The position numbers and the translations under genes are program-made. A DNA stretch of 64,000 bases from Escherichia virus KFS-EC. The stretch is taken from sequence record MH560358; one strand, 5' to 3'. The notes under the pieces are model-generated. The model was not told the DNA's origin, did not search any database, and saw only the letters and a list, made by a program, of their open reading frames with translations. Position 1 is the first letter of the stretch. Each line of letters opens with the position of its first letter. Positions 1,301 through 58,526 of the stretch are shown here, piece by piece.

Positions 1301-1582
1301 TTATTTTCGGTTGTACTTCTGCCACTTTCGGTAATACTGCTTGTAAAATTGTTTTGCGTTTTCACCATCTTTACTATACATGTTATCTACCATCAAGTCA
1401 ATAAGACCTCCCGGTGTCTGGTAGTTCCCCGCTCGGATAAGTTCTTTAATTAAATTGTCCTGATGATCTTTGTATACTACGTTAATGATGGTCTTTTCTG
1501 CTTTCTTCGTCCCGATCATCCGGTGATTAGCTTTCATCGCATCCCACCAATCTTTTGTGATCTTCATGTTATTGAATTGCAT
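1301..1582 (-). CDS. hypothetical protein (93 aa)
   Basis: ATG start with AAGAGG SD. Confidence 0.5.
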   Translation of the reverse strand: MQFNNMKITKDWWDAMKANHRMIGTKKAEKTIINVVYKDHQDNLIKELIRAGNYQTPGGLIDLMVDNMYSKDGENAKQFYKQYYRKWQKYNRK

Positions 1583-1593
1583 AATTTAACCTC

Positions 1594-2352
1594 TTACTTG
1601 CAAACGTATTGATCTACATCAATTGCGCCACCGAATGTAGGATGACGTTTTTCGAATCGAATAGTTCCGTCGTTTGGTTCGAAAACGGAGTATTCATATA
1701 GATCTTTCTTGCCAACATTCTTATAAAACCCGCCTTTAGTCATAACGGTTTCTTGTACGTTTGCTTTGTGTACGTTGTATTCATCAATGTATACAAAATC
1801 AACCATCTTCCCATTTTTAATTGTTACTTTAAGATCTCCTGGTTGGTTTCCATATTTTGCATACAGTGGGGCTTCTTTAATTTTGGTGGAAATTCCATCT
1901 TTCATACTCCACTCATAACGAACGGTGCATTGATAGGTAAAAGTTTCGACCTTCGGTTCTTCTACAACTTTTGCTTCCTGTTTCGGTTGTTCTTCGTCAA
2001 CCTTCGCAGAAGTCTCTGAATCGCTTTCCGACGCAGTTTCTTCTTTAGGTAATACATTCATCAAGTTTTGAATTTGAGCGTTATATACAGCCTCCAGTGG
2101 CTGAATCTGCCCGATATTGATCATTGTATCACGAACAGTTTTATTCCAGTTGCGTTGCTCTTGTTTAAGCGACAGATCAATCTTAACAGCCTTAACATAT
2201 ACTTCATGAAGTTTAGAATCCAGTGCGGAGATTGACTCATTGGCACAAATAAACTTCTCTGATTTGGTAGTGGCTTTAGCGCAATCAAAGGACGCAGCAT
2301 TAGCACCGAAAGCAGTAGCAGAAAGAACGATAGCAGCGATAATGTTTTTCAT
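1594..2352 (-). CDS. secreted protein with LprI/DUF1311-like N-terminal domain
   Basis: N-terminal signal peptide (MKNIIAAIVLSATAFGANA); motif FDCAKATTKSEKFICANESISALDSKL typical of lysozyme-inhibitor LprI-like domains; acidic linker; early promoter directly upstream. Confidence 0.7.
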   Translation of the reverse strand: MKNIIAAIVLSATAFGANAASFDCAKATTKSEKFICANESISALDSKLHEVYVKAVKIDLSLKQEQRNWNKTVRDTMINIGQIQPLEAVYNAQIQNLMNVLPKEETASESDSETSAKVDEEQPKQEAKVVEEPKVETFTYQCTVRYEWSMKDGISTKIKEAPLYAKYGNQPGDLKVTIKNGKMVDFVYIDEYNVHKANVQETVMTKGGFYKNVGKKDLYEYSVFEPNDGTIRFEKRHPTFGGAIDVDQYVCK

Positions 2353-2386
2353 AATATATTCCTCAATGTTTTGTCTTGATGGGAGT

Positions 2387-2415
2387 ATCTTACTACTCCC
2401 TTAATCCGGTGTCAA
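2387..2415 (-). promoter_or_regulatory. sigma70-type early promoter (TTGACA-17-TAAGAT) with inverted repeat GGGAGTA..TACTCCC over the -10
   Basis: minus-strand -35 TTGACA at 2410-2415, 17-nt spacer, -10 at 2387-2392; A/T-rich UP region; ATG of downstream gene at 2352. Confidence 0.6.
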
Positions 2416-2422
2416 CTACTTT

Positions 2423-2578
2423 TTAAATTTCTTCTACAGTAAAGTCTTCAATGTTGTTGTGCTCGGAGAACGTTGCCAGACCAGCATTCCATGCATCATC
2501 CTCAGAGAAGAATACACCGTAACGTTCATATCCTTTAGCGCCTTCAAATTTAATCATTAATTTGTGAGTATGTTTCAT
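2423..2578 (-). CDS. small early protein (51 aa)
   Basis: internal ATG chosen (AAGGAGAATCAAA-ATG); track ORF N-terminus is translated promoter sequence. Confidence 0.5.
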   Translation of the reverse strand: MKHTHKLMIKFEGAKGYERYGVFFSEDDAWNAGLATFSEHNNIEDFTVEEI

Positions 2579-2609
2579 TTTGATTCTCCTTCGTTGTCTT
2601 GATGGGTTT

Positions 2610-2638
2610 AGTATAGGGGATCGCCGATCCCCTGTCAA
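2610..2638 (-). promoter_or_regulatory. early promoter (TTGACA-17-TATACT); the 17-nt spacer is a perfect palindrome GGGGATCGGCGATCCCC
   Basis: -35 at 2633-2638, -10 at 2610-2615; near-identical copies at 41241-41270 and 50058-50086. Confidence 0.6.
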
Positions 2639-2648
2639 CATCTATTTT

Positions 2649-2861
2649 TTAATTTTTACCCGCTCGTGCATTAATACGCATTTTCTGCATAGCCATGATC
2701 TGGCTTACTGCTTCTTCTTTACGTTCTTGCGTGATAACGTGACCAGATTCCGCAAACTCTCCCGCAACTTCTTCTACGATCTCGCGAACTTGAGAACGTC
2801 CAAAGATGCGGTTTCCTTCGTAGCTCATAAATTCAGTCACTACTTGCTCAATAGATTTCAT
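2649..2861 (-). CDS. small early protein (70 aa)
   Basis: ATG with AAGGAG SD downstream of promoter. Confidence 0.5.
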   Translation of the reverse strand: MKSIEQVVTEFMSYEGNRIFGRSQVREIVEEVAGEFAESGHVITQERKEEAVSQIMAMQKMRINARAGKN

Positions 2862-2890
2862 GTGATTCTCCTTTCGTTTGGTATGGGAGT

Positions 2891-2919
2891 ATAATACTAC
2901 TCCCATTTCTTTACGTCAA
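2891..2919 (-). promoter_or_regulatory. early promoter (TTGACG-17-TATTAT) with inverted repeat GGGAGTA..TACTCCC
   Basis: -35 at 2914-2919, -10 at 2891-2896. Confidence 0.55.
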
Positions 2920-2922
2920 CAA

Positions 2923-3084
2923 CTATTTTAAATTATTTTCGACCTTCACCCATTCCGCGTATTCTTGCGCGGCTACTTTCGGATTTAGTCCGTCTTCGTA
3001 CATTGCATCAAGTAATTCTTTGTCGGTGGGCTTATACCCTAGATAAGCCTCCACCTGATTTTTCCAAATTTTATACCAGTTCAT
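2923..3084 (-). CDS. small protein (53 aa)
   Basis: ATG 5 nt after stop of upstream ORF, GGTGA SD. Confidence 0.4.
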   Translation of the reverse strand: MNWYKIWKNQVEAYLGYKPTDKELLDAMYEDGLNPKVAAQEYAEWVKVENNLK

Positions 3085-3088
3085 ATTA

Positions 3089-3361
3089 TCACCAATCAAG
3101 AGCGCGTGTCTCTGCGTCTTCCCATGCTTGATCCATAACAGCCTTGAAAACATATTCTAGAGTATCATCTTTAGAGAATCCGAAGACTTTAGACGGAATA
3201 TCTTCGATTGCTACTCCCGCAACTTCTGCATTACGCGCTTGGCAATAATGCAACTCTAAGTTATCGAGATAGCGACCGCCTAATTTCTCCATATCATCCC
3301 AGCATTTCCAGTAACCTACTTTATTTGCAATTGCTAACACTTTGCTGTTTTCGTTGCTCAT
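3089..3361 (-). CDS. small early protein (90 aa)
   Basis: ATG with AAGGAGAATCAAAG leader; promoter upstream. Confidence 0.5.
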   Translation of the reverse strand: MSNENSKVLAIANKVGYWKCWDDMEKLGGRYLDNLELHYCQARNAEVAGVAIEDIPSKVFGFSKDDTLEYVFKAVMDQAWEDAETRALDW

Positions 3362-3471: not shown

Positions 3472-3867
3472 TTACTTACTAAATTTCTTTTTGGCTTCGT
3501 CTACCGCATGAGATGCCAGTACCGCAGCCGCATGTGCACTTTTATCTGTGTTGCAGAGAACGCCCAGATAAACATCACGCCAAAGTTTAATCATCTCGTA
3601 GATCATATCAATATCATTTTCTTGTTTGTTGGCGATGCTATTCGTCGTTATCTGGTAAGGTAACGGCTTGATCTGTACTGGTTCCGCCATCGGGCTAATC
3701 GGTTTCGGATCAGTCATAATAGGTGCTGTTGTGGGTGGTGTTTTCCATACATCATTATTCCACGGTTTAATCGTTGTGTCGTAAAGTTTATAAGGATTTT
3801 TGTCTGGGTCAACCATCCATGCATGATGAGTACCCAAACCATTTGAAGTGATGCGTCGTTCAGTCAT
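3472..3867 (-). CDS. hypothetical protein (131 aa), Pro-rich
   Basis: ATG with GGAGGG SD. Confidence 0.5.
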   Translation of the reverse strand: MTERRITSNGLGTHHAWMVDPDKNPYKLYDTTIKPWNNDVWKTPPTTAPIMTDPKPISPMAEPVQIKPLPYQITTNSIANKQENDIDMIYEMIKLWRDVYLGVLCNTDKSAHAAAVLASHAVDEAKKKFSK

Positions 3868-4063
3868 ACTTTCCCTCCAAAAATTCTTTCATCAAATAGT
3901 CTATCGTTGCTCTGTGTTCTGGTGTGTTTGTTATCTCTGCTAACTTATTCAGAGATTCAATAGTGATCCGGTTGGCTTCTTCCATAGTCTCAACGACCAT
4001 TGGCACAATCTTTTTATTGTTGTACACAAATGCAATATAACCGCCTTCTGGATATTCTTTCAT
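3860..4063 (-). CDS. hypothetical protein (67 aa)
   Basis: ATG 2 nt after gp52 stop, AAGAAGGG SD; track start is TTG. Confidence 0.45.
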   Translation of the reverse strand: MKEYPEGGYIAFVYNNKKIVPMVVETMEEANRITIESLNKLAEITNTPEHRATIDYLMKEFLEGKYD

Positions 4064-4065
4064 AA

Positions 4066-5412
4066 TCAACCCTTCTTAAGTTCTTTAAGATCTTTCTTAT
4101 ATTCCTTCATTGCGGTCGTCTTTGTCCAATACTCATATTCACTATGATGTTTATCGGCATCTTTGACCAGTCGATCATACTCTTCTTGAGTAACGCTATA
4201 TAATGGCATAGAAACTAGCTTATCGGCGTATGGACGCAGTTTTTCATGTCCATTTATGGATTGCATTACCTCGGCCTTTTTCTTGCCCTGTAGCTCGATT
4301 TCGCCCTTAATTACGCGATCGATAAATTCGGCTTTAGCCATTGCATAATTGTATGCTTCCAGCGTTTCCGCTTGCATCAATTCAATGCGTTTATCGACAT
4401 ACCCTAATCGGATTTCGACGAATCGACGGATCAGATCGCTCGCTTTCTCGAATACTTCTACTAAACCACGTTCGTTAACTACTACGATATTCTGGGCTAC
4501 TAACTGCGTTAGTTTAAAATCCTTCATGATTTGCTCATGTCGAGCGGATTCATCTTCGCTTTTGAAATAATCGCGTTTCAGTGTTACTTCAAATCTGAAT
4601 CCGTCCTTAGAGCAACGGTCATTATACGATACAATCAGATCTTTTTCTTCCAGTGCATCCAGTACCGCTACATATTCTTCACGGTCGAACTTATAAGGAA
4701 CTTCTGATATTGTCAGTTTAGTCTTGCCGTTTAGTTCATATGTACCCTCAAGAATCACACCATCGCGATCATCTCGCGGGATAACTTTACCTGTGAATTT
4801 CGGGAATTGAACACTAGGTTCTTTATCCAGTTTTCCGGCAAGTGCTAGCTCTGTGCATTCAATAAGGCTTTCCAGTGAATGCGGTAAAATGTCAGTTTTA
4901 TACCCTGTAGCAATACCACTAATACCATTAGCCAATACCATTGGCACAACTGGCAAGTAGAAAGCTGGCGGGATGTGTTCCAGATCTTCGTGCTTAGGTG
5001 CGCAATTCATATCTTTATAGATTTTAAAGAAGTTTTCATGCACACGAGCAAAGATATAACGTGCCGCACCTGCTTTCTGGACTAAACGCGATCCGAAGTT
5101 ACCTTGACCGTCAAGCAGTGGAGTATTATTGCTCCATGTATTCGCCATGAGTGATCCGGCTTCTACGGCATTAGTTTCCCCGTGGTGATAACCCAACTCA
5201 GCAACACCAGATCCAATATCTGCCATCTTACGGAATTTCTTACGGTCGCCTTTACTCTTTTGCAAAGCACATTCCATAACAAAGCGTTGCACTGGTTTAA
5301 GTCCGTCTACCAATTGAGGAATCCCGCGTTCCTCGGCAGAATAGATCGCATATTCCTTAGCTTCATTATGTACAATGCTTTCAAGGCTGCGGTAAGTAAC
5401 TGATTTATTCAT
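4066..5412 (-). CDS. 52: DNA topoisomerase II medium subunit (GyrA-like), gp52
   Basis: strong similarity to T4 gp52 as recalled (PVQRFV, GYHHGE, LLDGQGNFGS motifs); start set at internal ATG, track start is GTG. Confidence 0.9.
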   Translation of the reverse strand: MNKSVTYRSLESIVHNEAKEYAIYSAEERGIPQLVDGLKPVQRFVMECALQKSKGDRKKFRKMADIGSGVAELGYHHGETNAVEAGSLMANTWSNNTPLLDGQGNFGSRLVQKAGAARYIFARVHENFFKIYKDMNCAPKHEDLEHIPPAFYLPVVPMVLANGISGIATGYKTDILPHSLESLIECTELALAGKLDKEPSVQFPKFTGKVIPRDDRDGVILEGTYELNGKTKLTISEVPYKFDREEYVAVLDALEEKDLIVSYNDRCSKDGFRFEVTLKRDYFKSEDESARHEQIMKDFKLTQLVAQNIVVVNERGLVEVFEKASDLIRRFVEIRLGYVDKRIELMQAETLEAYNYAMAKAEFIDRVIKGEIELQGKKKAEVMQSINGHEKLRPYADKLVSMPLYSVTQEEYDRLVKDADKHHSEYEYWTKTTAMKEYKKDLKELKKG

Positions 5413-13634: not shown

Positions 13635-13874
13635 TTAAATATCCTCCGCGATGTGCCGGAATAACTCCAGATCATTTTTATCTAACACTAGATTGCATTT
13701 GGTTGACCGATAATTGCAAACATTAATCAGTAAACTTTCCATCGCCTGTACCGACTGTACTTTATGTCGAAAAGACATTACATGTTGTGCATAATCAGCG
13801 TGAATTTTATCACGATGGAATGTTACGATGGCATCTAAACATAACAGTTTATCAATTTCATCAATAATCATCAT
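13635..13874 (-). CDS. hypothetical protein (79 aa)
   Basis: ORF tightly packed between dexA and dda. Confidence 0.45.
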   Translation of the reverse strand: MMIIDEIDKLLCLDAIVTFHRDKIHADYAQHVMSFRHKVQSVQAMESLLINVCNYRSTKCNLVLDKNDLELFRHIAEDI

Positions 13875-13875
13875 A

Positions 13876-14043
13876 TCAGTAACCCCGCTTAGTGAAGTGA
13901 TCTATCATGGAATTAATACAATCGGCCTCGCTGATTCCAGATATACCCCATCCGTAGTTACCCCACCTGAAATGCATGTATACACATTCGCCATGATACG
14001 ATACTTTCACTTCGTCAAATTCTGGGATACTTCGCATAATCAT
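13876..14043 (-). CDS. hypothetical small protein (55 aa)
   Basis: internal ATG with GAGGAA SD; track start TTG. Confidence 0.4.
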   Translation of the reverse strand: MIMRSIPEFDEVKVSYHGECVYMHFRWGNYGWGISGISEADCINSMIDHFTKRGY

Positions 14044-14054
14044 AATAATATTCC

Positions 14055-15446
14055 TCAAATATAGTCTACACGATACCGAGCACGGGTAACACCAACATAT
14101 AATAACTGCATTGCCAATTCAAAGTCAACATTGTCTGTACACATGCAAGGGGTATACAGGAACACGCGGTCTACGCTGATCCCTTGTGACTTATGAATGG
14201 TGCAAGCTGGTAATGCTTTTACATTCAAGAACATACGCCTCATCGTCCAGAAGGAATCCCAATCTGGTTTAAATTTTGGATTCTCTTTCTTCATTTCGCG
14301 ATATTGTCCGGCGACCGTATTCAGATAGATAGAGAAAATGTTCTTCTGACGTTGTTCTGTCAGAATGTTGATTTCTACTAAATCCGGTTTATCTGTAGTG
14401 ATTCCGACTGCATCTAAACCGACTTTCTGATTTAGGATTTCTTTGTCTTCGTCATCATCGACGCTTTCCACTTTCAGAGTATAGCCTAAAACTGGTTGCG
14501 GATCTACCCCCGTGCAACGTAATGTAAATTCGCGCGGGATGACCTCTTTAACTCGGATCATCTCACCATTGTTAAAAATAACATTGGGAATCTTCTTCCC
14601 GCGTTCATCTCGCAGATATTCGATCAACGGTTCCTGAGTAACCAGAATTTCATCTACAATCACTGGTTCATCGGTGTTATAAACGCGCTTACGTACAATT
14701 TCATTGAGTTTTTCGACGCTCTTGTTAGTGTAGGCCAGAATACGGTTTTCTAGAAGGTCTTCCGGCGTTTTAACGGTTTCGAAATAATGCTTCATAAACT
14801 CCGGCAGAGTTGAGCTATGGAATACACCCTCGTTACCGCACTGCTTTTCGAATACCCATTTACCGTTACGGACAGCGGTCGCCACATCAATTATTGGCGC
14901 ATTAGATCGTTTAATCTCTGTAAGTTCTACATTCTGGAACCTTTCATCGGTGAAGAAAGGAGAGATCGACGTTGCACCGCTCGTATCAACTGGTCGTAAC
15001 TGGTACAGATCACCCACAGCAATAATAACAATTCGACCGTTAATACTCTTCATGAGGATATCAAATAGTTTCTTATCGACCATACTCGCTTCATCAACAA
15101 TGATGATCTGAACATCATCAAGTTTAGGAGTATCTTTTTGCTCAAATACTTGAGTGTCTTCATAGTTGGTCGGATTGAGTCGCAGAAGTGCATGTAAGGT
15201 AAACGCTTGACGGCCTACCGCCTTACTCAAAACTTTTTTAGCCTGGTGGGTAGGCGTTGCCAAAACCACACCAGTTACACCACGGCGGACCATTTCCTGA
15301 ACAATGAATTTCATCATTGCGGTTTTACCAGTACCCGCCGCACCACGGACAGTTGTATGCTTCTTTTGTTCAATACGTTTCATTAGAACATCAAAAGCAT
15401 GTTTTTGCCCGTCTGTTAACATATCGAAAGTTAATACTCTGCTCAT
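14055..15446 (-). CDS. dda: Dda SF1 DNA helicase
   Basis: matches T4 Dda as recalled (LT.GQK.AF, G.AGTGKT, IGD..Q..PV); 463 aa. Confidence 0.9.
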   Translation of the reverse strand: MSRVLTFDMLTDGQKHAFDVLMKRIEQKKHTTVRGAAGTGKTAMMKFIVQEMVRRGVTGVVLATPTHQAKKVLSKAVGRQAFTLHALLRLNPTNYEDTQVFEQKDTPKLDDVQIIIVDEASMVDKKLFDILMKSINGRIVIIAVGDLYQLRPVDTSGATSISPFFTDERFQNVELTEIKRSNAPIIDVATAVRNGKWVFEKQCGNEGVFHSSTLPEFMKHYFETVKTPEDLLENRILAYTNKSVEKLNEIVRKRVYNTDEPVIVDEILVTQEPLIEYLRDERGKKIPNVIFNNGEMIRVKEVIPREFTLRCTGVDPQPVLGYTLKVESVDDDEDKEILNQKVGLDAVGITTDKPDLVEINILTEQRQKNIFSIYLNTVAGQYREMKKENPKFKPDWDSFWTMRRMFLNVKALPACTIHKSQGISVDRVFLYTPCMCTDNVDFELAMQLLYVGVTRARYRVDYI

Positions 15447-16576: not shown

Positions 16577-17080
16577 TTAAATTAAAGAAAATTTGTAAAT
16601 CTCTATCAGATCGCCATTACACGCGTAAACTTCCTCGATCTCATCAAGGATCATGGTCGTCCCTGTCTTGTATATGCACTCGCGCTCATCTGCCAACATA
16701 GCATACAAAGACAGTCGAGTAGTTGGATTGTCATACTCTTTAGACACCACTCGGTCAATAGCATGTTCGTAATAATTCATGCAAGGCTTGGTAGGTTTTA
16801 TTGCAATAATCTTTCCTGTTGCATAAACATCGGTTGCAAAGTCCTCTGCTGTTGATTGCAGTGGCGTAAAGCTCATAGGACGCTCTACAACGAAAGAATC
16901 ACCCACAATTAAGGTATCCAGCTTACGGCCTTCTCTTTTGCTCACACCGCGATACAAGGCTTCATGATGCACTAACCGCTCAGTCTTTTCGATCAATCCA
17001 TTAAGGATCGACATATCGATATTTTCTTTAGAGTTCATCACTTCATCAATGATGTTAAGTTCTTCTGGTGTAAATTGCAT
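16577..17080 (-). CDS. putative ADP-ribosyltransferase (ModA/ModB-like, R-S-E type)
   Basis: candidate catalytic signature YRG ... QST ... ERE in the order expected for cholera-toxin-like ARTs; lies at the T4 modA/modB position between dda and 56. Confidence 0.45.
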   Translation of the reverse strand: MQFTPEELNIIDEVMNSKENIDMSILNGLIEKTERLVHHEALYRGVSKREGRKLDTLIVGDSFVVERPMSFTPLQSTAEDFATDVYATGKIIAIKPTKPCMNYYEHAIDRVVSKEYDNPTTRLSLYAMLADERECIYKTGTTMILDEIEEVYACNGDLIEIYKFSLI

Positions 17081-17149: not shown

Positions 17150-17668
17150 TTAGTAGCCGCGTTCTTGACGGGCGAAGTTTTCAGCATTTTTCAGATAGTA
17201 CAGCTTGAAGATATCCTTAGCGGTTAAACCTAAGCCCAGCATTTTAATCAGCACAAAATGCCAGATATCGATCAATTCCATCGAAATTTCGGTTTTATCG
17301 TCATCTGACAGGTCAGCAAATTTACGCGATCGTGCTTCGCCGTGGTTTTTCTTCCACACTTTAGTAATTGCGCTTGCATCTTTGCCATTTGACATGCCAC
17401 CCAGGGCAACATAAAGTTCTCGTGTCTCGTCGTCGATTGCGTCATCCCACAACTTCATCCAGTCAAGGATTTCTCCACAAGTTTCCAGCTTATCAGGATG
17501 CGGCACCCACTCAAATTTATCAGCTAGTGCGACCTGTAATCCTTTTTGCATATCTAACATTACTTGCAGCGGATCTTTGCCGCTAGTGATTGCCTCGGAA
17601 TACGCAATACCAGCTTTAGACATAGTTTCATCATTAACAAGACCAGCACAAGAATTAAATTCACTCAT
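17150..17668 (-). CDS. 56: dCTPase/dUTPase-like nucleotide pyrophosphatase (MazG-like), gp56
   Basis: MazG-type motif ELIDIWHFVL; T4 gp56 position between modA/B and 61; start at internal ATG with GAGAGG SD. Confidence 0.75.
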   Translation of the reverse strand: MSEFNSCAGLVNDETMSKAGIAYSEAITSGKDPLQVMLDMQKGLQVALADKFEWVPHPDKLETCGEILDWMKLWDDAIDDETRELYVALGGMSNGKDASAITKVWKKNHGEARSRKFADLSDDDKTEISMELIDIWHFVLIKMLGLGLTAKDIFKLYYLKNAENFARQERGY

Positions 17669-17678
17669 AATAAACCTC

Positions 17679-18242
17679 TCAAATAACATTAAACACTGCA
17701 AATTCACCGTGATACTTATACGCATAGTCATTATATACTATTGCGGCGTCTATTTCTAGGTCAAATTGTCCTATATAGACTTTATTTCCTTCATTGTCCC
17801 TTATCTGGGCGACCCATTTACCCGAACGACTATTATAATGCACTCCTTTAAAATTGCTAGTTTTAGTTTGGTTATTTCTTCTCATATTTTGGGTATTCTG
17901 TTTTTGTGTCGCCTCTCTTAAGTTTGGAGGGTCGTTGTTTTCTGGATTCCCGTCAATATGGTCAATGACAGGTGGGCAATACCCATGCTCTAAGAAGAAT
18001 ACTATTCTATGCACAAGCTCAAAATATTGTTTTCCTTCAAAAGAAAACGAGACTTTTAGGTGTCCGGCTGTGACTTTAGATACCTTTACTATATCACCAA
18101 CCTTATAAAACTGGCCTTCTTTCGTCGTTCGGCTTGCTTTGCTGTTTGTTTTATGAATCAATATACCACTTTCGTGTCTATATCTTCGACGTATTTCATC
18201 CTTTAGTTCATCGCTCCATTCTTTGGCTTTCCTTACCCTCAC
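17679..18242 (-). CDS. freestanding HNH homing endonuclease with C-terminal AP2-like DNA-binding domain
   Basis: HNH motif HRIVFFLEHGYCPPVIDHIDGNPENNDPPNLREATQKQN; AP2-like FKGVHYNSRSGKWVAQIRDNEGNKVYIGQF; GTG start with GAGGG SD; inserted between 61 and 56. Confidence 0.75.
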   Translation of the reverse strand: MRVRKAKEWSDELKDEIRRRYRHESGILIHKTNSKASRTTKEGQFYKVGDIVKVSKVTAGHLKVSFSFEGKQYFELVHRIVFFLEHGYCPPVIDHIDGNPENNDPPNLREATQKQNTQNMRRNNQTKTSNFKGVHYNSRSGKWVAQIRDNEGNKVYIGQFDLEIDAAIVYNDYAYKYHGEFAVFNVI

Positions 18243-40552: not shown

Positions 40553-41056
40553 TCAAATAATTTTCACTGGAATACTATTAACAATCTTGTATTGTACTTG
40601 ATTGTCAGACCCCCGCCACGGCTTCTTCGTTGGCATATCTTTAATATAACGCCCATCGATGAACACGTCAACTGATTCTACAATTTTTCTTTGCTCATCA
40701 TTCAATTGGTCAAGGGTATAACCAGACCATAGCCAAATATCTTTATTTGGCATCCATGATTTTACTTCATCGATGATCCGCTGTACACCCTTTAAATTGC
40801 GTTTATACAGTGGATCGCCACCTAAGAATGTTAGCCCCTGAATAAAATCAGGTCTAAGCAGATCCAGAATCAATCCCATTGTATCATCGGTGAATGGTTC
40901 CCCGTTCTTAGGATTGAGTAGGCTAGCATTAAAGCAACCATCACATGCGTGTGAACATCCGGTAACGTAAAGGGAGACTCTCACTCCCTCACCGTTAACC
41001 ATATCACAATCTTTAATATCGGCATAGCGTAGTTTGCCGTATGTATCAGAACTCAT
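40553..41056 (-). CDS. nrdG: anaerobic ribonucleotide reductase activating enzyme NrdG (radical SAM)
   Basis: CxxxCxxC radical-SAM cluster motif (GCSHACDGC), GGDPL, WRGSDNQ; adjacent to nrdD. Confidence 0.88.
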   Translation of the reverse strand: MSSDTYGKLRYADIKDCDMVNGEGVRVSLYVTGCSHACDGCFNASLLNPKNGEPFTDDTMGLILDLLRPDFIQGLTFLGGDPLYKRNLKGVQRIIDEVKSWMPNKDIWLWSGYTLDQLNDEQRKIVESVDVFIDGRYIKDMPTKKPWRGSDNQVQYKIVNSIPVKII

Positions 41057-41198
41057 ATTCAATTACCCCGAACTCGTTTACAATCTGCGCTTTATAGTAA
41101 CCACCGCGAGATGCCAATAGATAAGCTGGGCTTAGGTATTCGTATTCACGGATTTCTACTTGTGCGTTTTCAGTTTCCCAAATCAGTAAAGTCCACAT
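41046..41198 (-). CDS. small early protein (50 aa)
   Basis: ATG after AGGAGAATCAAAT leader downstream of promoter; track N-terminus is translated promoter. Confidence 0.45.
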   Translation of the reverse strand: MWTLLIWETENAQVEIREYEYLSPAYLLASRGGYYKAQIVNEFGVIEYEF

Positions 41199-41240
41199 AT
41201 TTGATTCTCCTGTAAAGTTGTATCTCGTCTTGATGTGTGT

Positions 41241-41270
41241 AGTATAGGGGATCTCGCGATCCCCGTCAAG
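41241..41270 (-). promoter_or_regulatory. early promoter with palindromic spacer GGGGATCTCGCGATCCCC
   Basis: -35 TTGACG at 41265-41270, -10 TATACT at 41241-41246; near-identical to copies at 2610-2638 and 50058-50086. Confidence 0.55.
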
Positions 41271-41273
41271 CAT

Positions 41274-41834
41274 TTATTTAAATTTTTCGAGAGATTTCAA
41301 CCACAGGCGGCCTGGTAGGTACTCTCCGGCAAACATGAAATTGTCATCTGGATAAGAACGCAGCATATTCAAAATAAACTTCCGGCACTCTTCGTAATCT
41401 TTACGTTTAAGATAAATCACATTCTCGCCAGTACCGATCACACCTTTGCTGTATCCATGCTCTTTACGCACAGACCATTGTACAGTATCCTTTTTAACCC
41501 GAATCACAACAGGTTCCCAATACCCAGCGCATCCGGCTACACCACACGAACAGGTGAGGAAGTATTGACCTTTTGCTTTGTTTTCCTCCCACCCGATATT
41601 AACCGGATGCCATTCGTGAAACAAGGCTAAAGCATCGTGTGTCTCTTCGATCTGTTTATTGTCAATTCTTACCGTAACCATCCATACAGGGATCTTATTT
41701 GTTGGTTCATCATCATAACATGAATCATCATAACATGAATCATCATCAATATGTTCTAATGTCATATCAACATTAATTGATTTTGCGTGTTCCAGGTGTC
41801 GTTGTGCTTTACGTTTACGGTTTAATGATTTCAT
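41274..41834 (-). CDS. hypothetical protein (186 aa), Cys-rich
   Basis: internal ATG with GAGGTGA SD; contains the 15-bp tandem repeat. Confidence 0.55.
   Translation of the reverse strand: MKSLNRKRKAQRHLEHAKSINVDMTLEHIDDDSCYDDSCYDDEPTNKIPVWMVTVRIDNKQIEETHDALALFHEWHPVNIGWEENKAKGQYFLTCSCGVAGCAGYWEPVVIRVKKDTVQWSVRKEHGYSKGVIGTGENVIYLKRKDYEECRKFILNMLRSYPDDNFMFAGEYLPGRLWLKSLEKFK
41711..41750 (-). repeat. 15-bp direct tandem repeat (catcataacatgaat x2 plus partial) inside a coding region
   Basis: encodes DDSCY-DDSCY-DD in ORF 41274-41834. Confidence 0.6.
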
Positions 41835-46126: not shown

Positions 46127-46189
46127 AATAGAATCCTCTCGTTGTTTATATGGGAGTATCTTACTACTCCCATTTCATGCTGTCAACTA

Positions 46190-46663
46190 CTATCTTAATC
46201 TTTGTATAAATTGTTTCTTATACTTCTTCGTGATCTCTTCTCTTGTATCAGCGTCACAATAATCGAAACCTTCTGCGTCCATAATAGCAAGCATCTCCGC
46301 GCGTGTCAAGCGTGAAAATCGTTTTACTTTATCAACAGCATATTGAGGATGTAAATGATTGTCGGTGTAGTCTCCTTTGATGTAATTAACATAGTTTGTA
46401 GCCCAAACAACGAAATCAGCACCTAAAGCACCAACACCAAACCGTTTAAAGTCTCCGGTCAACGATCCTTCTAGGCGGTTGCAACACGAATGAAGCAATC
46501 CCCTTACGCGGCCTTGCCCTTTACCATCGAGATCGTGGTCGTGGTCAAGATGGTTTTTGCTCATATCCTCAAAAAGTGGCAATTGACAAAGGGGGCAAAT
46601 GCCCCCCTGTTTTTCGAATAGTTCTTGTTTGTACTCTTTAGCACTCTTAGCAGTCAGTAACAT
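46190..46663 (-). CDS. 49: endonuclease VII (Holliday junction resolvase) gp49
   Basis: matches T4 gp49 as recalled (C.LCQ, NHLDHDH.L.G...G.VRGLL...CN); start at ATG with GGAGGGTGA SD. Confidence 0.88.
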   Translation of the reverse strand: MLLTAKSAKEYKQELFEKQGGICPLCQLPLFEDMSKNHLDHDHDLDGKGQGRVRGLLHSCCNRLEGSLTGDFKRFGVGALGADFVVWATNYVNYIKGDYTDNHLHPQYAVDKVKRFSRLTRAEMLAIMDAEGFDYCDADTREEITKKYKKQFIQRLR

Positions 46664-46687
46664 AAATTCACCCTCCAAAGAAGGTAT

Positions 46688-46969
46688 TTAACCATTAATC
46701 TTGTTTTTGACTACAAAGGATCGGAACTCATCAAAACCACCGATATAATCACCATTATAGAAAATCTGCGGCATGGTGGCAATAACTTCTACCCCTGCGC
46801 GATCCTGAATATCGGCAATGATATAATCAATCTTTACCGGACGACCGTTTTCGTCCACACCATCATTAACCGGAATGTAGATGTAAGGGATCTTACGCGC
46901 TTCACAAAGGCGCTTTGCATTCTGGCAATACTTACAGTTGTAACCTTCAAAACCAAAAATTTCTACCAT
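46688..46969 (-). CDS. nrdC: thioredoxin-like NrdC
   Basis: CKYC redox motif, resembles T4 NrdC as recalled (YG...CKYC.NAKRL...MPQIF...IGGFD); internal ATG with GAGGT SD. Confidence 0.8.
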   Translation of the reverse strand: MVEIFGFEGYNCKYCQNAKRLCEARKIPYIYIPVNDGVDENGRPVKIDYIIADIQDRAGVEVIATMPQIFYNGDYIGGFDEFRSFVVKNKING

Positions 46970-46977
46970 GTTATACC

Positions 46978-47790
46978 TCAATCTACGTTAGTTACATAAA
47001 CTTCTTGCGTATCAGAAGACTTACCACCTGAACGATCTAGGCAATAGGTCTTATTCAACAGGACGCAGTTTAAATCATTCCGCTTGATAAAGTCAAGGAG
47101 ATGATCATTTACCTTTCCCTTATGATGTGTGACATTACTGATACCAAACCGAAAACCACGCTCCATAATAGATTCTACCCACTGATAGAATTTAATCTCT
47201 TCCTCGTCACTCCAGAACTTATTATATTCCGCAGAAGTGATAAGGTACGGCGGGTCCAAATAAACGAAATCACCTGGCAAGATCTCGATCTCGTCATAGC
47301 GACCAGACGTAAAACTGATTCGACCGTCTTTGTTTTCTTCCTTAAAATTCAGGACACGCTCTACCGCGTTTTCGTTAAAAGTCCGGCGACCAAAATTAGC
47401 ATTAAATTCTCCCTTCCTGTTATGGCGGTTAATGTTGCTAAAACTGTGCTGAATCAGAACAAACAGAGATAGCGGATCTGGATTCTCGTTATACTTCTTG
47501 CGGAATGCCATATAAGAATCTTTATCATCACGAGACAAACCATTTTCGGCAATGATACGCTTGATCGTAGAAACCGGATCAGGACACTCGTCAATCTCTT
47601 TGTACGCGTCAATTAAGCGGTGATCATAGTCATTAGCCAGAACATCCCCTTCGACGTACAGAGACACGCTCAAGCCGCCACAAAAGGCATCAACAAAGCG
47701 GTTATAGTGCTTAGGGAAATACTTACTAACACTAGGCAATAACTTTTCCTTATTGCCAGTATAGGGAATTAAACCTAATGCTTTCTTCAT
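46978..47790 (-). CDS. dam: DNA adenine methyltransferase Dam
   Basis: motifs FVD.FCGGLSVSL and DFVYLDPPYLIT..(E/A)YNKFWS(D/E)EEE as in T4 Dam. Confidence 0.88.
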   Translation of the reverse strand: MKKALGLIPYTGNKEKLLPSVSKYFPKHYNRFVDAFCGGLSVSLYVEGDVLANDYDHRLIDAYKEIDECPDPVSTIKRIIAENGLSRDDKDSYMAFRKKYNENPDPLSLFVLIQHSFSNINRHNRKGEFNANFGRRTFNENAVERVLNFKEENKDGRISFTSGRYDEIEILPGDFVYLDPPYLITSAEYNKFWSDEEEIKFYQWVESIMERGFRFGISNVTHHKGKVNDHLLDFIKRNDLNCVLLNKTYCLDRSGGKSSDTQEVYVTNVD

Positions 47791-55816: not shown

Positions 55817-56413
55817 TTAGTTGGTAGTGCCATCAATAAAATGTTTACGGCACACAGAAACATATTTATCCTCTGCACCAACTTCGATTTGAGCACCATC
55901 GCGAATAACATTACCCTCTTTATCTACACGAAGGACCATTGTTGCTTTCTTGCCACAATGACAAATACCCTTCATTTCGACCAGTTTATCAGCAAATGCC
56001 ATCAATGCCGCAGATCCTTCAAATAGATTGCCCTGAAAGTCAGTGCGAAGGCCATAGCACAGTACAGGGATATTTGCATCATCAACAAGCGCACACAAGC
56101 CTAAAACATGCTCTTTAGTCATAAATTGGGCTTCATCTACAAATACAGCATCAGGACGCCAGCGATCTGGTCTACGCTTACCTAACGATTCACGATAAAC
56201 CAAGTCGAAAAGATCATCCGATTCAGTGAAGGTGATCGCTGGAGCACTTAGACCAATTCGGGAAACAACTTCACTTTCTGAATCTCGATTATCAATCGCT
56301 GGCTTAAGAATTAATACTCGCATATCACGTTCGGTATAGTTATAAGCACTTTGTAACAGAGAAGTTGATTTGCCAGCGTTCATAGATGCATAGTAGAAAT
56401 ATAATTGCGCCAT
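55817..56413 (-). CDS. tk: thymidine kinase
   Basis: matches T4 Tk as recalled (Y.AMNAGKS.SLL, VL.LKPAID.RDS, VDEAQF, YGLRTDF.G.LFEGS, CHCGKKA). Confidence 0.92.
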   Translation of the reverse strand: MAQLYFYYASMNAGKSTSLLQSAYNYTERDMRVLILKPAIDNRDSESEVVSRIGLSAPAITFTESDDLFDLVYRESLGKRRPDRWRPDAVFVDEAQFMTKEHVLGLCALVDDANIPVLCYGLRTDFQGNLFEGSAALMAFADKLVEMKGICHCGKKATMVLRVDKEGNVIRDGAQIEVGAEDKYVSVCRKHFIDGTTN

Positions 56414-56706
56414 TAATTAATCTCCAAAAATCCAGCAAGACCTAAACCGATATAAGTCCAGATACCAATAAAAAAGATGTTAATGCTCATGGCAAGGATA
56501 AACCCTTTTAGCGTTTTAGGATATCCAACCCAATATTCCAGACCATCTTCTAACCGGATCAGTTTATTGCCCTGAGAGTCCATATCGACTACAACATGTT
56601 TATTTCGAGATTGCAATAGATATTGTTTTACAATCTCTACACCCGCCATAATAACAATAACGAAAATAAAAGTCCACACAACAAGATTAATGATAGTCTC
56701 AAGCAT
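56413..56706 (-). CDS. membrane protein (97 aa)
   Basis: two hydrophobic helices; ATGA coupling to tk; GGAGGTGA SD. Confidence 0.55.
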   Translation of the reverse strand: MLETIINLVVWTFIFVIVIMAGVEIVKQYLLQSRNKHVVVDMDSQGNKLIRLEDGLEYWVGYPKTLKGFILAMSINIFFIGIWTYIGLGLAGFLEIN

Positions 56707-56917
56707 TTTCTATCACCTCCACCCAATCAGGTGTTTCCTGAAAGACTCCTTCACCTTCATGATGGTCGCAACCTTTATTGCTGCAATACATCCACCAATC
56801 CCACATTCCCCACGGTAAACGCTGCATATCGTCGTTACAGCAAGTGAAGATGATAGGCCAACCACATCTACCACAACGGCAGTTTTCCTTCATGTGAGCG
56901 GTATTAGGCTTCTTCAT
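56699..56917 (-). CDS. Cys-rich zinc-binding small protein (72 aa)
   Basis: CRCGRCG...CC...CSNKGCDHH; internal ATG with GGAG SD. Confidence 0.45.
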   Translation of the reverse strand: MKKPNTAHMKENCRCGRCGWPIIFTCCNDDMQRLPWGMWDWWMYCSNKGCDHHEGEGVFQETPDWVEVIENA

Positions 56918-57108
56918 AGATGACTCCAATATAATCGACATTTACATTTAGGGCAATGCGGTTCTTTAATATAATACCCGTCTGTCTTTGGAACACTAAC
57001 AGGAGCGGTTTTTATATTGTATTCAATGAAACAACGAAAACAAGTTACGTTTTCTACAGACTGACGTTTCACCCAATCACCGGAATATAGATCATTTTTA
57101 TTTGTCAT
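56914..57108 (-). CDS. zinc-ribbon small protein (64 aa)
   Basis: CFRC...CPKCKC; internal ATG. Confidence 0.45.
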   Translation of the reverse strand: MTNKNDLYSGDWVKRQSVENVTCFRCFIEYNIKTAPVSVPKTDGYYIKEPHCPKCKCRLYWSHL

Positions 57109-57553
57109 ATTCAACCACCACAATGTTAATGTCTGGAGTAGCAATATTAATGATCTCTTCTACACATTCCCACTCAAGGCCACCGATACCGCAACCGATT
57201 TTAGGAATATAGAAAGGCTGTATAGCACCCTCAAAAACATCATTGAGAGACTCAAATCCTTTCAGGATAGCACCATATTCAGCATTTGGACCCGGTCGGA
57301 ATTGGGTATAGAGATTCACCCCGCACCAGTTATAACCATTAACTTGATGCGTCCAGACACTAAACCCACCCAGCTTTTCGACCTTACCGCGAGAAGTTTG
57401 CTTGTCAATCTCTAACGCTTGCGGGAACTCTTTCGCGATCTTCGCAGCAATACCAGCGCCCATAGTATGAAAACAATTACAACCATGAATTAAATGACCG
57501 TTTCCTTGTTTAAACAGGGCGATGAGATCGCCCTTTACAGTATCAATAATCAT
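57098..57553 (-). CDS. macro-domain protein (ADP-ribose binding/processing)
   Basis: GDLIALFKQGNGHLIHGCNCFHTMGAGIAAKI and IPKIGCGIGGL align with the macro-domain pattern GDIT...VNAAN...GGGV..AI and ...STGVYG; GAGGT SD. Confidence 0.6.
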   Translation of the reverse strand: MIIDTVKGDLIALFKQGNGHLIHGCNCFHTMGAGIAAKIAKEFPQALEIDKQTSRGKVEKLGGFSVWTHQVNGYNWCGVNLYTQFRPGPNAEYGAILKGFESLNDVFEGAIQPFYIPKIGCGIGGLEWECVEEIINIATPDINIVVVEYDK

Positions 57554-57568
57554 AATATAAACCTCACA

Positions 57569-57928
57569 TTAGTCACGGGAAGACAACCCAGCCATAAAAC
57601 GGCTTAACAGTGTGTCGCGATAAGCAAAGCATAATTGCTTATCAGGGGCAGTATCACACAGGTTACGTTTTGTTTTAGCAAAGCTGGCAATACTCAGATC
57701 CCACGCTCGATTTTTTCGTTTTTCGTCTCGACCTTGTTTGTATGCTTCATCAAGTTCGAGCGCGATAAAATCACTACACATGTTATCATCATCACAGAAA
57801 GTTTTAATGATCTTTTTGTTGATCTCAAATCCTTTGTATTCGAACTTTGGATAAGGGCGCTCATTACTAGCAAGCGCACCAGCAGAGAACATCATAGCAA
57901 TCATAGCAATTATTGTCAACTTTTTCAT
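57569..57928 (-). CDS. secreted protein (119 aa) with signal peptide
   Basis: MKKLTIIAMIAMMFSAGALA signal peptide; four Cys. Confidence 0.55.
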   Translation of the reverse strand: MKKLTIIAMIAMMFSAGALASNERPYPKFEYKGFEINKKIIKTFCDDDNMCSDFIALELDEAYKQGRDEKRKNRAWDLSIASFAKTKRNLCDTAPDKQLCFAYRDTLLSRFMAGLSSRD

Positions 57929-57935
57929 ATATTCC

Positions 57936-58526
57936 TCAATAGCGTTTAGTCTTAAGAATGCCTTTACTCTTTAGATGGTTAGCCTTTTTTAGTACGTCAT
58001 CAGCATAACCTAATCCGGCTTTATAGTTCCATCCAGCATTGTAAGAAGCTAGCGCGAGTCTGATATTACCGTTTCGAATATCCAGCCAGTATGCTAACTC
58101 ATCCATCGCGTAGAATGCAGAAACCTCGCGATTCATGATAAAGTTGATAGTCTGGCGATCACTCATTTTAACACCGCGCTTTGCATTTTTCGCTTTCACC
58201 GTTTTAAGGTAATTTTGAAATAATCCATAAGCATGATGATTTTTCTTTGGTGCTAAGTTTGCACCCGCGCTTGATTCTTGCCATGCGATACCCGCCAGGA
58301 TGTGACCTAAACCCTTTCCGTTATAGCGAATATTCGGATGGTACTTTTTCAACTTACCGCTTTTCTCGAATTGCTCGCCGTATTGATAGGCGAAATGTAA
58401 ATTATCTAGTTGGTGTGCTGTAAAGTTGTCTATCGGCGCTTTTTTGATCGGTGCGCTAGTCGATGCGTGTGTAGCACCAACGGCTAGTGACAGACTCAAT
58501 ACTATCGCTTTTAGAACTTTTAACAT
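57936..58526 (-). CDS. secreted lytic transglycosylase-like protein (SLT domain)
   Basis: signal peptide MLKVLKAIVLSLSLAVGATHA; SLT-like motifs GIAWQESS, AYGLFQ, ASYNAG; AGGAGA SD. Confidence 0.6.
   Translation of the reverse strand: MLKVLKAIVLSLSLAVGATHASTSAPIKKAPIDNFTAHQLDNLHFAYQYGEQFEKSGKLKKYHPNIRYNGKGLGHILAGIAWQESSAGANLAPKKNHHAYGLFQNYLKTVKAKNAKRGVKMSDRQTINFIMNREVSAFYAMDELAYWLDIRNGNIRLALASYNAGWNYKAGLGYADDVLKKANHLKSKGILKTKRY

Follow-up and report, generated by a model that had tools for sequence, protein, structure and literature searches.

What does a T4-like phage do with a macrodomain protein when the same genome also encodes an enzyme that attaches ADP-ribose? The question is raised by a stretch of 64,000 nucleotides from Escherichia virus KFS-EC (sequence record MH560358; hereafter the window), in which a minus-strand open reading frame (ORF) at 57098–57553, the macro ORF, carries the strings of a macrodomain, and a second minus-strand ORF at 16577–17080, the Mod ORF, was proposed to be a Mod-like ADP-ribosyltransferase (ART). 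The original prediction held the pairing of a writer with a potential eraser or reader of ADP-ribosylation to be notable, and offered two uses for the latter: countering host defences of the DarT type, or tuning the phage's own modification of host proteins. The answer that we consider probable is that the macro ORF is the Krischvirus ortholog of T4 tk.4 (AdfM): a free-standing ADP-ribosyl glycohydrolase that counters DNA modification by DarT2 by means of a glutamine-type active site. The fold, the orthology and synteny with T4 tk.4 and the conservation of active-site residues come from the analysis reported here; the phenotype of the T4 knockout and the biochemistry of SCO6735 and of the PhiKZ protein are drawn from the literature.

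The macro ORF begins with an ATG and encodes a single-domain protein of 151 amino acids (aa). The strings on which its recognition was based are present (GDL at residues 8–10, HGCNCFHTMGAGIA at 23–36 and IPKIGCGIGG at 116–125) and the domain is real: Pfam Macro (PF01661) is covered from end to end (profile positions 1–118 of 118) and scores 29.9 bits, its gathering cut-off being 22 bits (E = 6e-7), and phrog_335 matches at E = 6e-63. A family profile built from 94 sequences, when compared with the PDB, returned BT1257, TARG1/OARD1, SCO6735, the DarG proteins of Mycobacterium tuberculosis (Mtb) and Thermus aquaticus (Taq), and Poa1p (E = 2e-15 to 7e-10), the first three and DarG lying at about 1e-15 to 1e-11. 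The AlphaFold2 model has a predicted local distance difference test score (pLDDT) of 97 and a predicted template modelling (TM) score of 0.91, and Foldseek places TARG1, DarG (Taq and Mtb), BT1257 and SCO6735 closest to it among solved structures (TM 0.73–0.82). There are 189 PDB fold matches at E≤1e-3, each of the listed ones being either a natural macrodomain or a designed protein. From the model we are confident that the protein is built on the three-layer alpha/beta/alpha macro fold, and the same modelled structure makes it a member of the ALC1-like class of macrodomains. Checked by profile and by structure, the macro ORF leads to macrodomains, just as the Mod ORF leads to ART toxins of the R-S-E class (below).

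In both the PADLOC and the NCBIfam libraries the sole match of the macro ORF is DarG (E = 9e-15 and 2e-13, respectively). The match is confined to the N-terminal macro portion of the DarG model, positions 2–141 of 338, and the score against the NCBIfam equivalog model NF048014 is 50.5 bits, far under its cut-off of 250 bits. The protein also lacks the C-terminal DarT-binding domain and Lys80 of DarG, and the neighbours of its gene are tk.3 and vs, not darT. On these grounds we rejected the possibility that the macro ORF is itself a DarG.

The gene finds its counterpart in T4. Over residues 1–150 the macro ORF is 44% identical to T4 Tk.4 (65% positives, E = 3e-45), and the gene order tk–tk.1–tk.2–tk.3–tk.4–vs–vs.1–regB is identical in the two phages: by sequence and by position the macro ORF is the syntenic ortholog of T4 tk.4. 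The family is already known and annotated (the GenBank record of Shigella phage Sf20 describes the gene as one that ‘contains macro domain... similar to phage T4 Tk.4’) and the T4 ortholog has a published function. In a T4 transposon library on a DarTG2 host tk.4 was the single significant hit, and a clean deletion of tk.4, a gene dispensable except on DarTG2 hosts, sensitised T4 to DarTG2; the gene was named adfM, for anti-DarT factor Macrodomain (bioRxiv 10.1101/2025.11.20.689424, a preprint of November 2025). A further factor had been predicted from the finding that T4 without adfA and adfN stays resistant to DarTG2, adfN being T4 gene 30.3, a NADAR enzyme specific for the guanosine-linked ADP-ribose (ADPr) made by DarT1 (PMC11825919). 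Independently, the name AdfM was given to PhiKZ gp104, which strips thymidine-ADPr (T-ADPr) from oligonucleotides and shields chimalliviruses from DarTG2 (PMC13309987). The DarT-countering role put forward for the macro ORF agrees, through orthology, with the T4 genetics, and we infer for the RB49-type protein the activity and the target of T4 Tk.4/AdfM.

How might such a protein work? DarG and TARG1 rely on a catalytic lysine (K80 and K84, respectively), for which K78 is the putative equivalent in PhiKZ AdfM. In the macro ORF, T83-Q84 aligns with T-K of DarG/TARG1 and with G-Q of BT1257, and Q84 occupies the position of DarG K80 and TARG1 K84 in three independent alignments (phmmer, profile against PDB, and hmmalign to the family hidden Markov model, HMM); T4 Tk.4 carries the same LYTQF motif. 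Among the 94 homologs Q84 is found in 93 and N26 in all, G120 and G122 are invariant, G32 and G34 are invariant or nearly so, and H23 is nearly invariant. N26, Q84 and both glycine-rich loops (31-MGAGIA-36 and 117-PKIGCGIGG-125) are kept almost without exception across homologs of 38–84% identity. G32, G34 and G120 are also invariant in six aligned sequences that include DarG, TARG1 and BT1257. N26 is shared with DarG and BT1257 and is replaced by a serine in TARG1; D125 of TARG1 corresponds to G124 of the macro ORF, so that the TARG1-type aspartate is absent. A small MAFFT alignment was set aside because its register in the catalytic loop is off by one to two columns; hmmalign (with the 94-sequence HMM) and two HMMER alignments agree. 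PhiKZ gp104 is mis-registered even in hmmalign, and the equivalence of its K78 is based on its FPTK motif and on PMC13309987; likewise, the correspondence with Gln85 of SCO6735 is taken from PMC9411070 and not from a residue-level alignment to 5E3B.

SCO6735, a Streptomyces protein, has Gln85 in place of the catalytic lysine and hydrolyses T-ADPr-DNA more efficiently than either DarG or TARG1; activity is lost in the Q85A mutant and nearly lost in N27S, and the proposed mechanism is water-mediated, with the glutamine positioning the distal ribose (PMC9411070). The aligned active-site pattern of the macro ORF – Q84, N26 and no TARG1-type aspartate – matches the glutamine subclass formed by SCO6735 and BT1257. 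From the glutamine at the catalytic position, together with N26 and the absence of D125, as in SCO6735, we infer an SCO6735-like manner of working: RB49/T4-type AdfM would be an orphan, glutamine-type T-ADPr-DNA glycohydrolase.

According to this model, a small free-standing ADP-ribosyl glycohydrolase would be produced early in infection. On triggering of host DarTG2, the toxin DarT2 would ADP-ribosylate thymidines of single-stranded phage DNA and replication would be blocked; the conserved loops MGAGIA and PKIGCGIGG of the macrodomain would hold the ADP-ribose, and cleavage of the thymidine–ribose bond would release it and restore the DNA. N26 would position Q84, with neither a catalytic lysine nor a catalytic aspartate, as in SCO6735, and, given a glutamine-type active site, catalysis would most likely consist of substrate positioning and an activated water rather than the lysine chemistry of DarG/TARG1. 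The phage macrodomain would in effect be the enzymatic half of the antitoxin on its own, an orphan from which the DarT-binding half is missing.

The missing half bears on a different means of protection, in which the macrodomain neutralises DarT2 (or some other ART toxin) mainly by binding the toxin or by sequestering ADP-ribosylated sites, as a stoichiometric inhibitor like AdfA/AdfB. There is precedent: the dead Q85A mutant of SCO6735 still inhibits DarT in vitro, and does so more strongly than the DarG or TARG1 mutants (PMC9411070), the phage factor AdfB works by binding DarT (PMC11481870), and AdfA is proposed to work likewise (PMC11825919). However, at 151 aa, and with a match limited to the macro portion of the DarG model, the macro ORF has no counterpart of the DarT-binding domain, and the near-total conservation of N26, Q84 and the glycine-rich loops is what would be expected of an enzyme. 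We therefore regard a mainly stoichiometric role as unlikely; DarT binding and hydrolysis may nonetheless coexist in the one domain.

Several points weigh against reading the macro ORF as a glutamine-type eraser of DNA modification. The RB49-type protein shares no more than 44% identity with T4 Tk.4; for T4 itself the evidence of anti-DarTG2 action consists solely of genetics reported in a preprint (10.1101/2025.11.20.689424), and we found no biochemistry on T4 Tk.4 in the literature. The assignment of an SCO6735-type mechanism is made by alignment, for a protein without the catalytic lysine of DarG and PhiKZ AdfM. The aligned spans (query 3–150 against 24–176 of the 5E3B chain) make the phage protein about five residues shorter somewhere after its start and, judged from these spans only, it appears to lack the extension (∼5 residues) of the mobile loop that follows the glutamine in SCO6735. 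The macro ORF is acidic (pI 5.3) and SCO6735 electropositive; yet PhiKZ AdfM is likewise acidic (pI 5.05) and, because this validated protein is no less so, charge was dropped as an objection to activity on DNA. Finally, DNA may not be the sole target, since proteins, too, are substrates of SCO6735 and TARG1. Taken to its widest extent, the last point would make T4/RB49-type AdfM a lysine-independent, glutamine-type general eraser with broad substrates (T-ADPr DNA, Asp/Glu-linked protein ADPr and ADPr on nucleic-acid ends) that shields phages of many families, ∼2,700 of those sequenced, from several defences based on ADP-ribosylation, DarTG2 being only one of these, an extension that we consider conceivable, if doubtful.

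The name under which the family is filed points elsewhere. RefSeq and PHROG call it ‘phosphatase’ (RefSeq: A1pp phosphatase), as would suit a protein that processes small ADP-ribose derivatives: ADP-ribose-1′′-phosphate (Appr-1′′-p), O-acetyl-ADP-ribose (OAADPr), immune signals derived from ADPr, or the products of NADases. The best fold matches include Poa1p (E = 6e-10), an Appr-1′′-p phosphatase, TARG1/OARD1 is, by its PDB molecule name, also an OAADPr deacetylase, and the near-invariant H23 possibly matches the Poa1p residue mutated by the depositors of that structure (H23A). The ‘phosphatase’ label, however, stems from an old transfer of the A1pp motif and not from an assay, and the geometry of Poa1p is a worse fit to the model (root-mean-square deviation (rmsd) 4.7, TM 0.62–0.71) than that of DarG/TARG1 (rmsd 2.8–3.2, TM 0.76–0.82). 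Moreover, the only known phenotype of the T4 ortholog is specific to DarTG2 (10.1101/2025.11.20.689424). That small derivatives are the substrates seems to us quite unlikely.

There remains the supposed partner. The Mod ORF (167 aa) matches phrog_832 (E = 1e-20), a family labelled ‘RNA polymerase ADP-ribosylase’, and in tblastn it matches T4 modB. It lies, as had been predicted, at the T4 modA/modB position, the locus order dda–dda.1–srd–mod being the same. In an alignment with T4 ModA, ModB and 10 more homologs, R44 and S70 are invariant and E132 and E134 are present in every full-length sequence; the four correspond to R73, S99, E171 and E173 of ModB. The R-S-E signature first proposed is borne out in its outer parts, YRG (residues 43–45, with the conserved R44) and ERE (132–134, with the conserved E132 and E134). 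The middle part, QST (75–77), was rejected as the catalytic serine motif, since the alignments place the conserved serine at S70, in SFT (70–72). Direct Pfam and PDB sequence searches and a PADLOC search gave no match, the PF26816 model being absent from the Pfam copy used; PF26816 is precomputed for a 99%-identical protein (P0121) and for all homologs, some of which are named modB by their sources. A single-sequence homolog search found three relatives only, and the family was then resolved by a profile search, AlphaFold2 and Foldseek. The model (pLDDT 90.6) matches Certhrax, CDTa, VIP2, iota Ia and C3 at E = 4e-7 to 3e-5, and all 50 PDB matches listed, BECa, ExoT and HopU1 among them, are R-S-E ART toxins (probability 1.00, TMq 0.5–0.62). 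By alignment and modelled fold the Mod ORF is a true Mod-type (ModB-like) R-S-E mono-ADP-ribosyltransferase, with R44, S70 and E132-x-E134 as its signature; the gene is shortened and stands alone, and its sequence is slightly nearer to ModB than to ModA.

The co-occurrence of the two genes does not set this phage apart. T4 carries alt, modA, modB, tk.4 and 30.3; in Sf20 the macro protein and a single Mod are accompanied by a pair of Alt-like ARTs and by a NADAR homolog of 30.3, and gp232 and gp156 of Sf20 are in GenBank already annotated as the macro and the Mod gene. The combination is standard equipment of T4-like phages, present in T4 and in some 1,000 relatives, and the claim that it is notable does not survive. 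Nor are the two genes distributed together. By tblastn the macro family is found in 2,733 phage records from many genera, including 184 from Pseudomonas, 134 from Vibrio, 93 from Acinetobacter and 84 from Aeromonas phages, whereas Mod-type genes are found in 1,016, with leading groups that consist entirely of enterobacterial phages and include none of these four. Given these different numbers and groups, the distribution of the macro gene is not tied to that of Mod.

These data bear on the second use first suggested for the macrodomain, namely a writer–eraser circuit in which it would reverse or read the marks that the phage itself sets on host proteins, be it ADP-ribosylation by Alt/Mod or RNAylation by ModB. 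The same genome does encode a Mod-type ART, its close relative Sf20 has two Alt-like ARTs besides, and SCO6735 and TARG1 are able to remove ADPr from proteins (PMC9411070). Against such a circuit stand the unequal distributions and the 40 kb that separate the macro and Mod genes. The chemistry of the linkage is a further obstacle: Alt, ModA and ModB modify arginine, and the enzymes that remove arginine-linked ADPr are those of the ARH/DraG type and MavL, a specialised macrodomain; macrodomains of the ALC1/TARG1 class are not known to cleave this linkage. In addition, T4 tk.4 is dispensable without DarTG2 (10.1101/2025.11.20.689424). On distribution, separation and linkage chemistry we rejected the idea that the Mod ART and the macrodomain are functionally linked, and we think it very unlikely that the protein tunes the phage's own marks. 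We propose instead that the Mod ORF is a separate host-takeover enzyme, not the partner of a macrodomain that would act on DarT2-modified DNA.

The surroundings of tk.4 are those of an early-gene block on the minus strand. A GAGG Shine-Dalgarno sequence (57562–57565, minus strand), read directly from the sequence, stands 8 nt 5′ of the tk.4 ATG, within the 15-nt gap that follows the stop codon of vs (TAA, 57569–57571). Downstream, tk.3 (56914–57108, minus strand; a Phage_zn_bind_2 protein, PF23903, E = 6e-23, noted here as genomic context only) has its ATG at 57108, overlapping the final codons and the stop of tk.4, an overlap from which translational coupling of tk.3 to tk.4 is probable. Both the GAGG site and the overlap are consistent with co-expression of tk.4 in the early tk–regB block. 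The gene immediately upstream and in the same direction is vs (57569–57928, minus strand), a valyl-tRNA synthetase modifier (phrog_1256, E = 2e-33; T4 gene order) and one of the two anchors of synteny; the other, downstream, is the thymidine kinase gene tk (55817–56413, minus strand) of the tk–tk.1–tk.2–tk.3–tk.4 block. In this block tk.2 (56699–56941, minus strand) encodes a small ‘Phage zinc binding domain’ protein (PF23895, E = 9e-34). Beyond vs lies vs.1 (57936–58526, minus strand), in which an SLT lytic transglycosylase domain (E = 1e-5) follows a hydrophobic, signal-like N-terminus; it is a predicted murein hydrolase of the early region, possibly periplasmic. A promoter scan of the region was uninformative (22 sites, against 17.1±3.5 in shuffled sequences). 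The strongest sigma-70-like match in the region (57891–57919, minus strand; TTGACA, a 17-nt spacer and a TG-extended TATGAT, 11/12) lies within the first codons of vs and is oriented towards tk.4; as stated, the number of sites in the region is not above that of the shuffled controls.

The window is DNA of a Krischvirus (RB49-like, Straboviridae). Positions 1–64000 correspond to 93702–157701 of Sf20 with ∼97% identity overall and with insertions or deletions at ∼2430–2658, 40555–41795 and 46187–47165, whereas the tk–vs.1 stretch is 100% identical to Sf20 and 99.8% identical to RB49. This mosaic pattern of identity, together with the insertions and deletions, suggests recombination among Krischviruses. 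Close to the Mod ORF, the segment 17663–18250 contains an ORF (17679–18242, minus strand; 187 aa) with an HNH_3 domain (E = 9e-14) and a sub-threshold AP2 match, between a dCTPase-like gene and the primase gene; it is absent from Sf20, in which these two genes abut, and looks like a mobile homing-endonuclease insertion. The adjoining dCTP pyrophosphatase/MazG-like ORF (17150–17731, minus strand) runs to 193 aa, with translation probably beginning 21 codons downstream of its start: the gene annotated in Sf20 has 519 nt (equivalent to 17150–17668 of the window).

Outside the part that corresponds to the window, Sf20 encodes its two Alt-like ARTs (of which gp54 is described as ‘distinct from T4 Alt, lacks C-terminus’), the NADAR homolog of the anti-DarTG1 factor T4 30.3/AdfN, and a protein like 57B/Acb1; these loci lie at 305–1129, 1564–3333 and 13678–14157 of one retrieved Sf20 region (L008) and at 3785–4249 of another (L009). 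From gene content, the Krischvirus lineage appears to carry layered genes against DarTG and against the cyclic-oligonucleotide-based antiphage signalling system (CBASS), like T4. Stand-alone macrodomains of this kind also occur on bacterial chromosomes: in Pelagimonas phthalicica a 44%-identical homolog (L010, 6001–6459) is found among housekeeping genes, an orphan like SCO6735, and in this single neighbourhood, which allows no general conclusion, no DarT-like neighbour was seen.

A gene that in RB49-like phages is mislabelled ‘phosphatase’ or ‘hypothetical protein’ is thus explained as a probable counter-defence against DarTG2, which helps annotation and helps to predict which hosts a therapeutic T4-like phage can infect among E. 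coli, Shigella and Klebsiella that carry DarTG. The only point that we add to the cited papers is that AdfM of the T4 type has a glutamine, not a lysine, at the catalytic position. For this reason its chemistry should be modelled on SCO6735 and not on DarG, with N26 and Q84 as the residues to target.

Set beside known systems, each of the two proteins has close points of likeness and clear differences. The Mod ORF shares with T4 ModA/ModB (and Alt) the R-S-E residues, the locus after srd and the fold class of the C3/VIP2/iota toxins. Unlike the T4 genes it is a single gene and not a modA–modB pair, it is without an internal insertion and without ∼30 residues at the N-terminus, and its identity is 25–27% to T4 ModA/ModB and up to 31% to other Mod homologs. 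The macro ORF most resembles T4 Tk.4/AdfM in its position between tk.3 and vs, in its length (151 against 155 aa) and in the motifs NLYTQF, HGCNCFHTMG and P[KR]IG[CA]GIG; it differs in belonging to a Krischvirus and not to a Tequatrovirus and in the 56% of residues that have diverged, and the anti-DarTG2 phenotype, which is genetic, is that of T4 alone.

With the DarG of DarTG2 (Mtb 5M3I, Taq 5M31/5M3E) the macro ORF shares the macrodomain class (TM 0.78–0.80) and a presumed substrate, T-ADPr on single-stranded DNA; unlike DarG it has a glutamine for Lys80, no DarT-binding domain and no adjacent darT, and its score of 50.5 bits compares with the 250 bits demanded of an equivalog. Streptomyces coelicolor SCO6735 (5E3B) and Bacteroides BT1257 (2FG1) have in common with it the glutamine at the lysine position, the positioning asparagine, the glycines of the diphosphate loop and the orphan, single-domain state, and SCO6735 hydrolyses T-ADPr DNA and protects against DarT (PMC9411070). 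Both, however, are bacterial, chromosomal and only ∼23–25% identical, and SCO6735 has an electropositive surface and a ∼5-residue-longer, lysine-bearing mobile loop, whereas the phage protein is acidic and appears to be without the loop extension. PhiKZ gp104 (AdfM; Cell Rep 2026, PMC13309987) is, like the macro ORF, a free-standing phage macrodomain of similar size and acidity, and it counters DarTG2 by removing T-ADPr from DNA both in vitro and in vivo (PMC13309987). In contrast to the macro ORF it has a lysine-type site (N23/K78) and is a late protein, imported into the phage nucleus. The two are 26% identical (pairwise E = 1e-6), and within their common superfamily PhiKZ AdfM was probably acquired independently.

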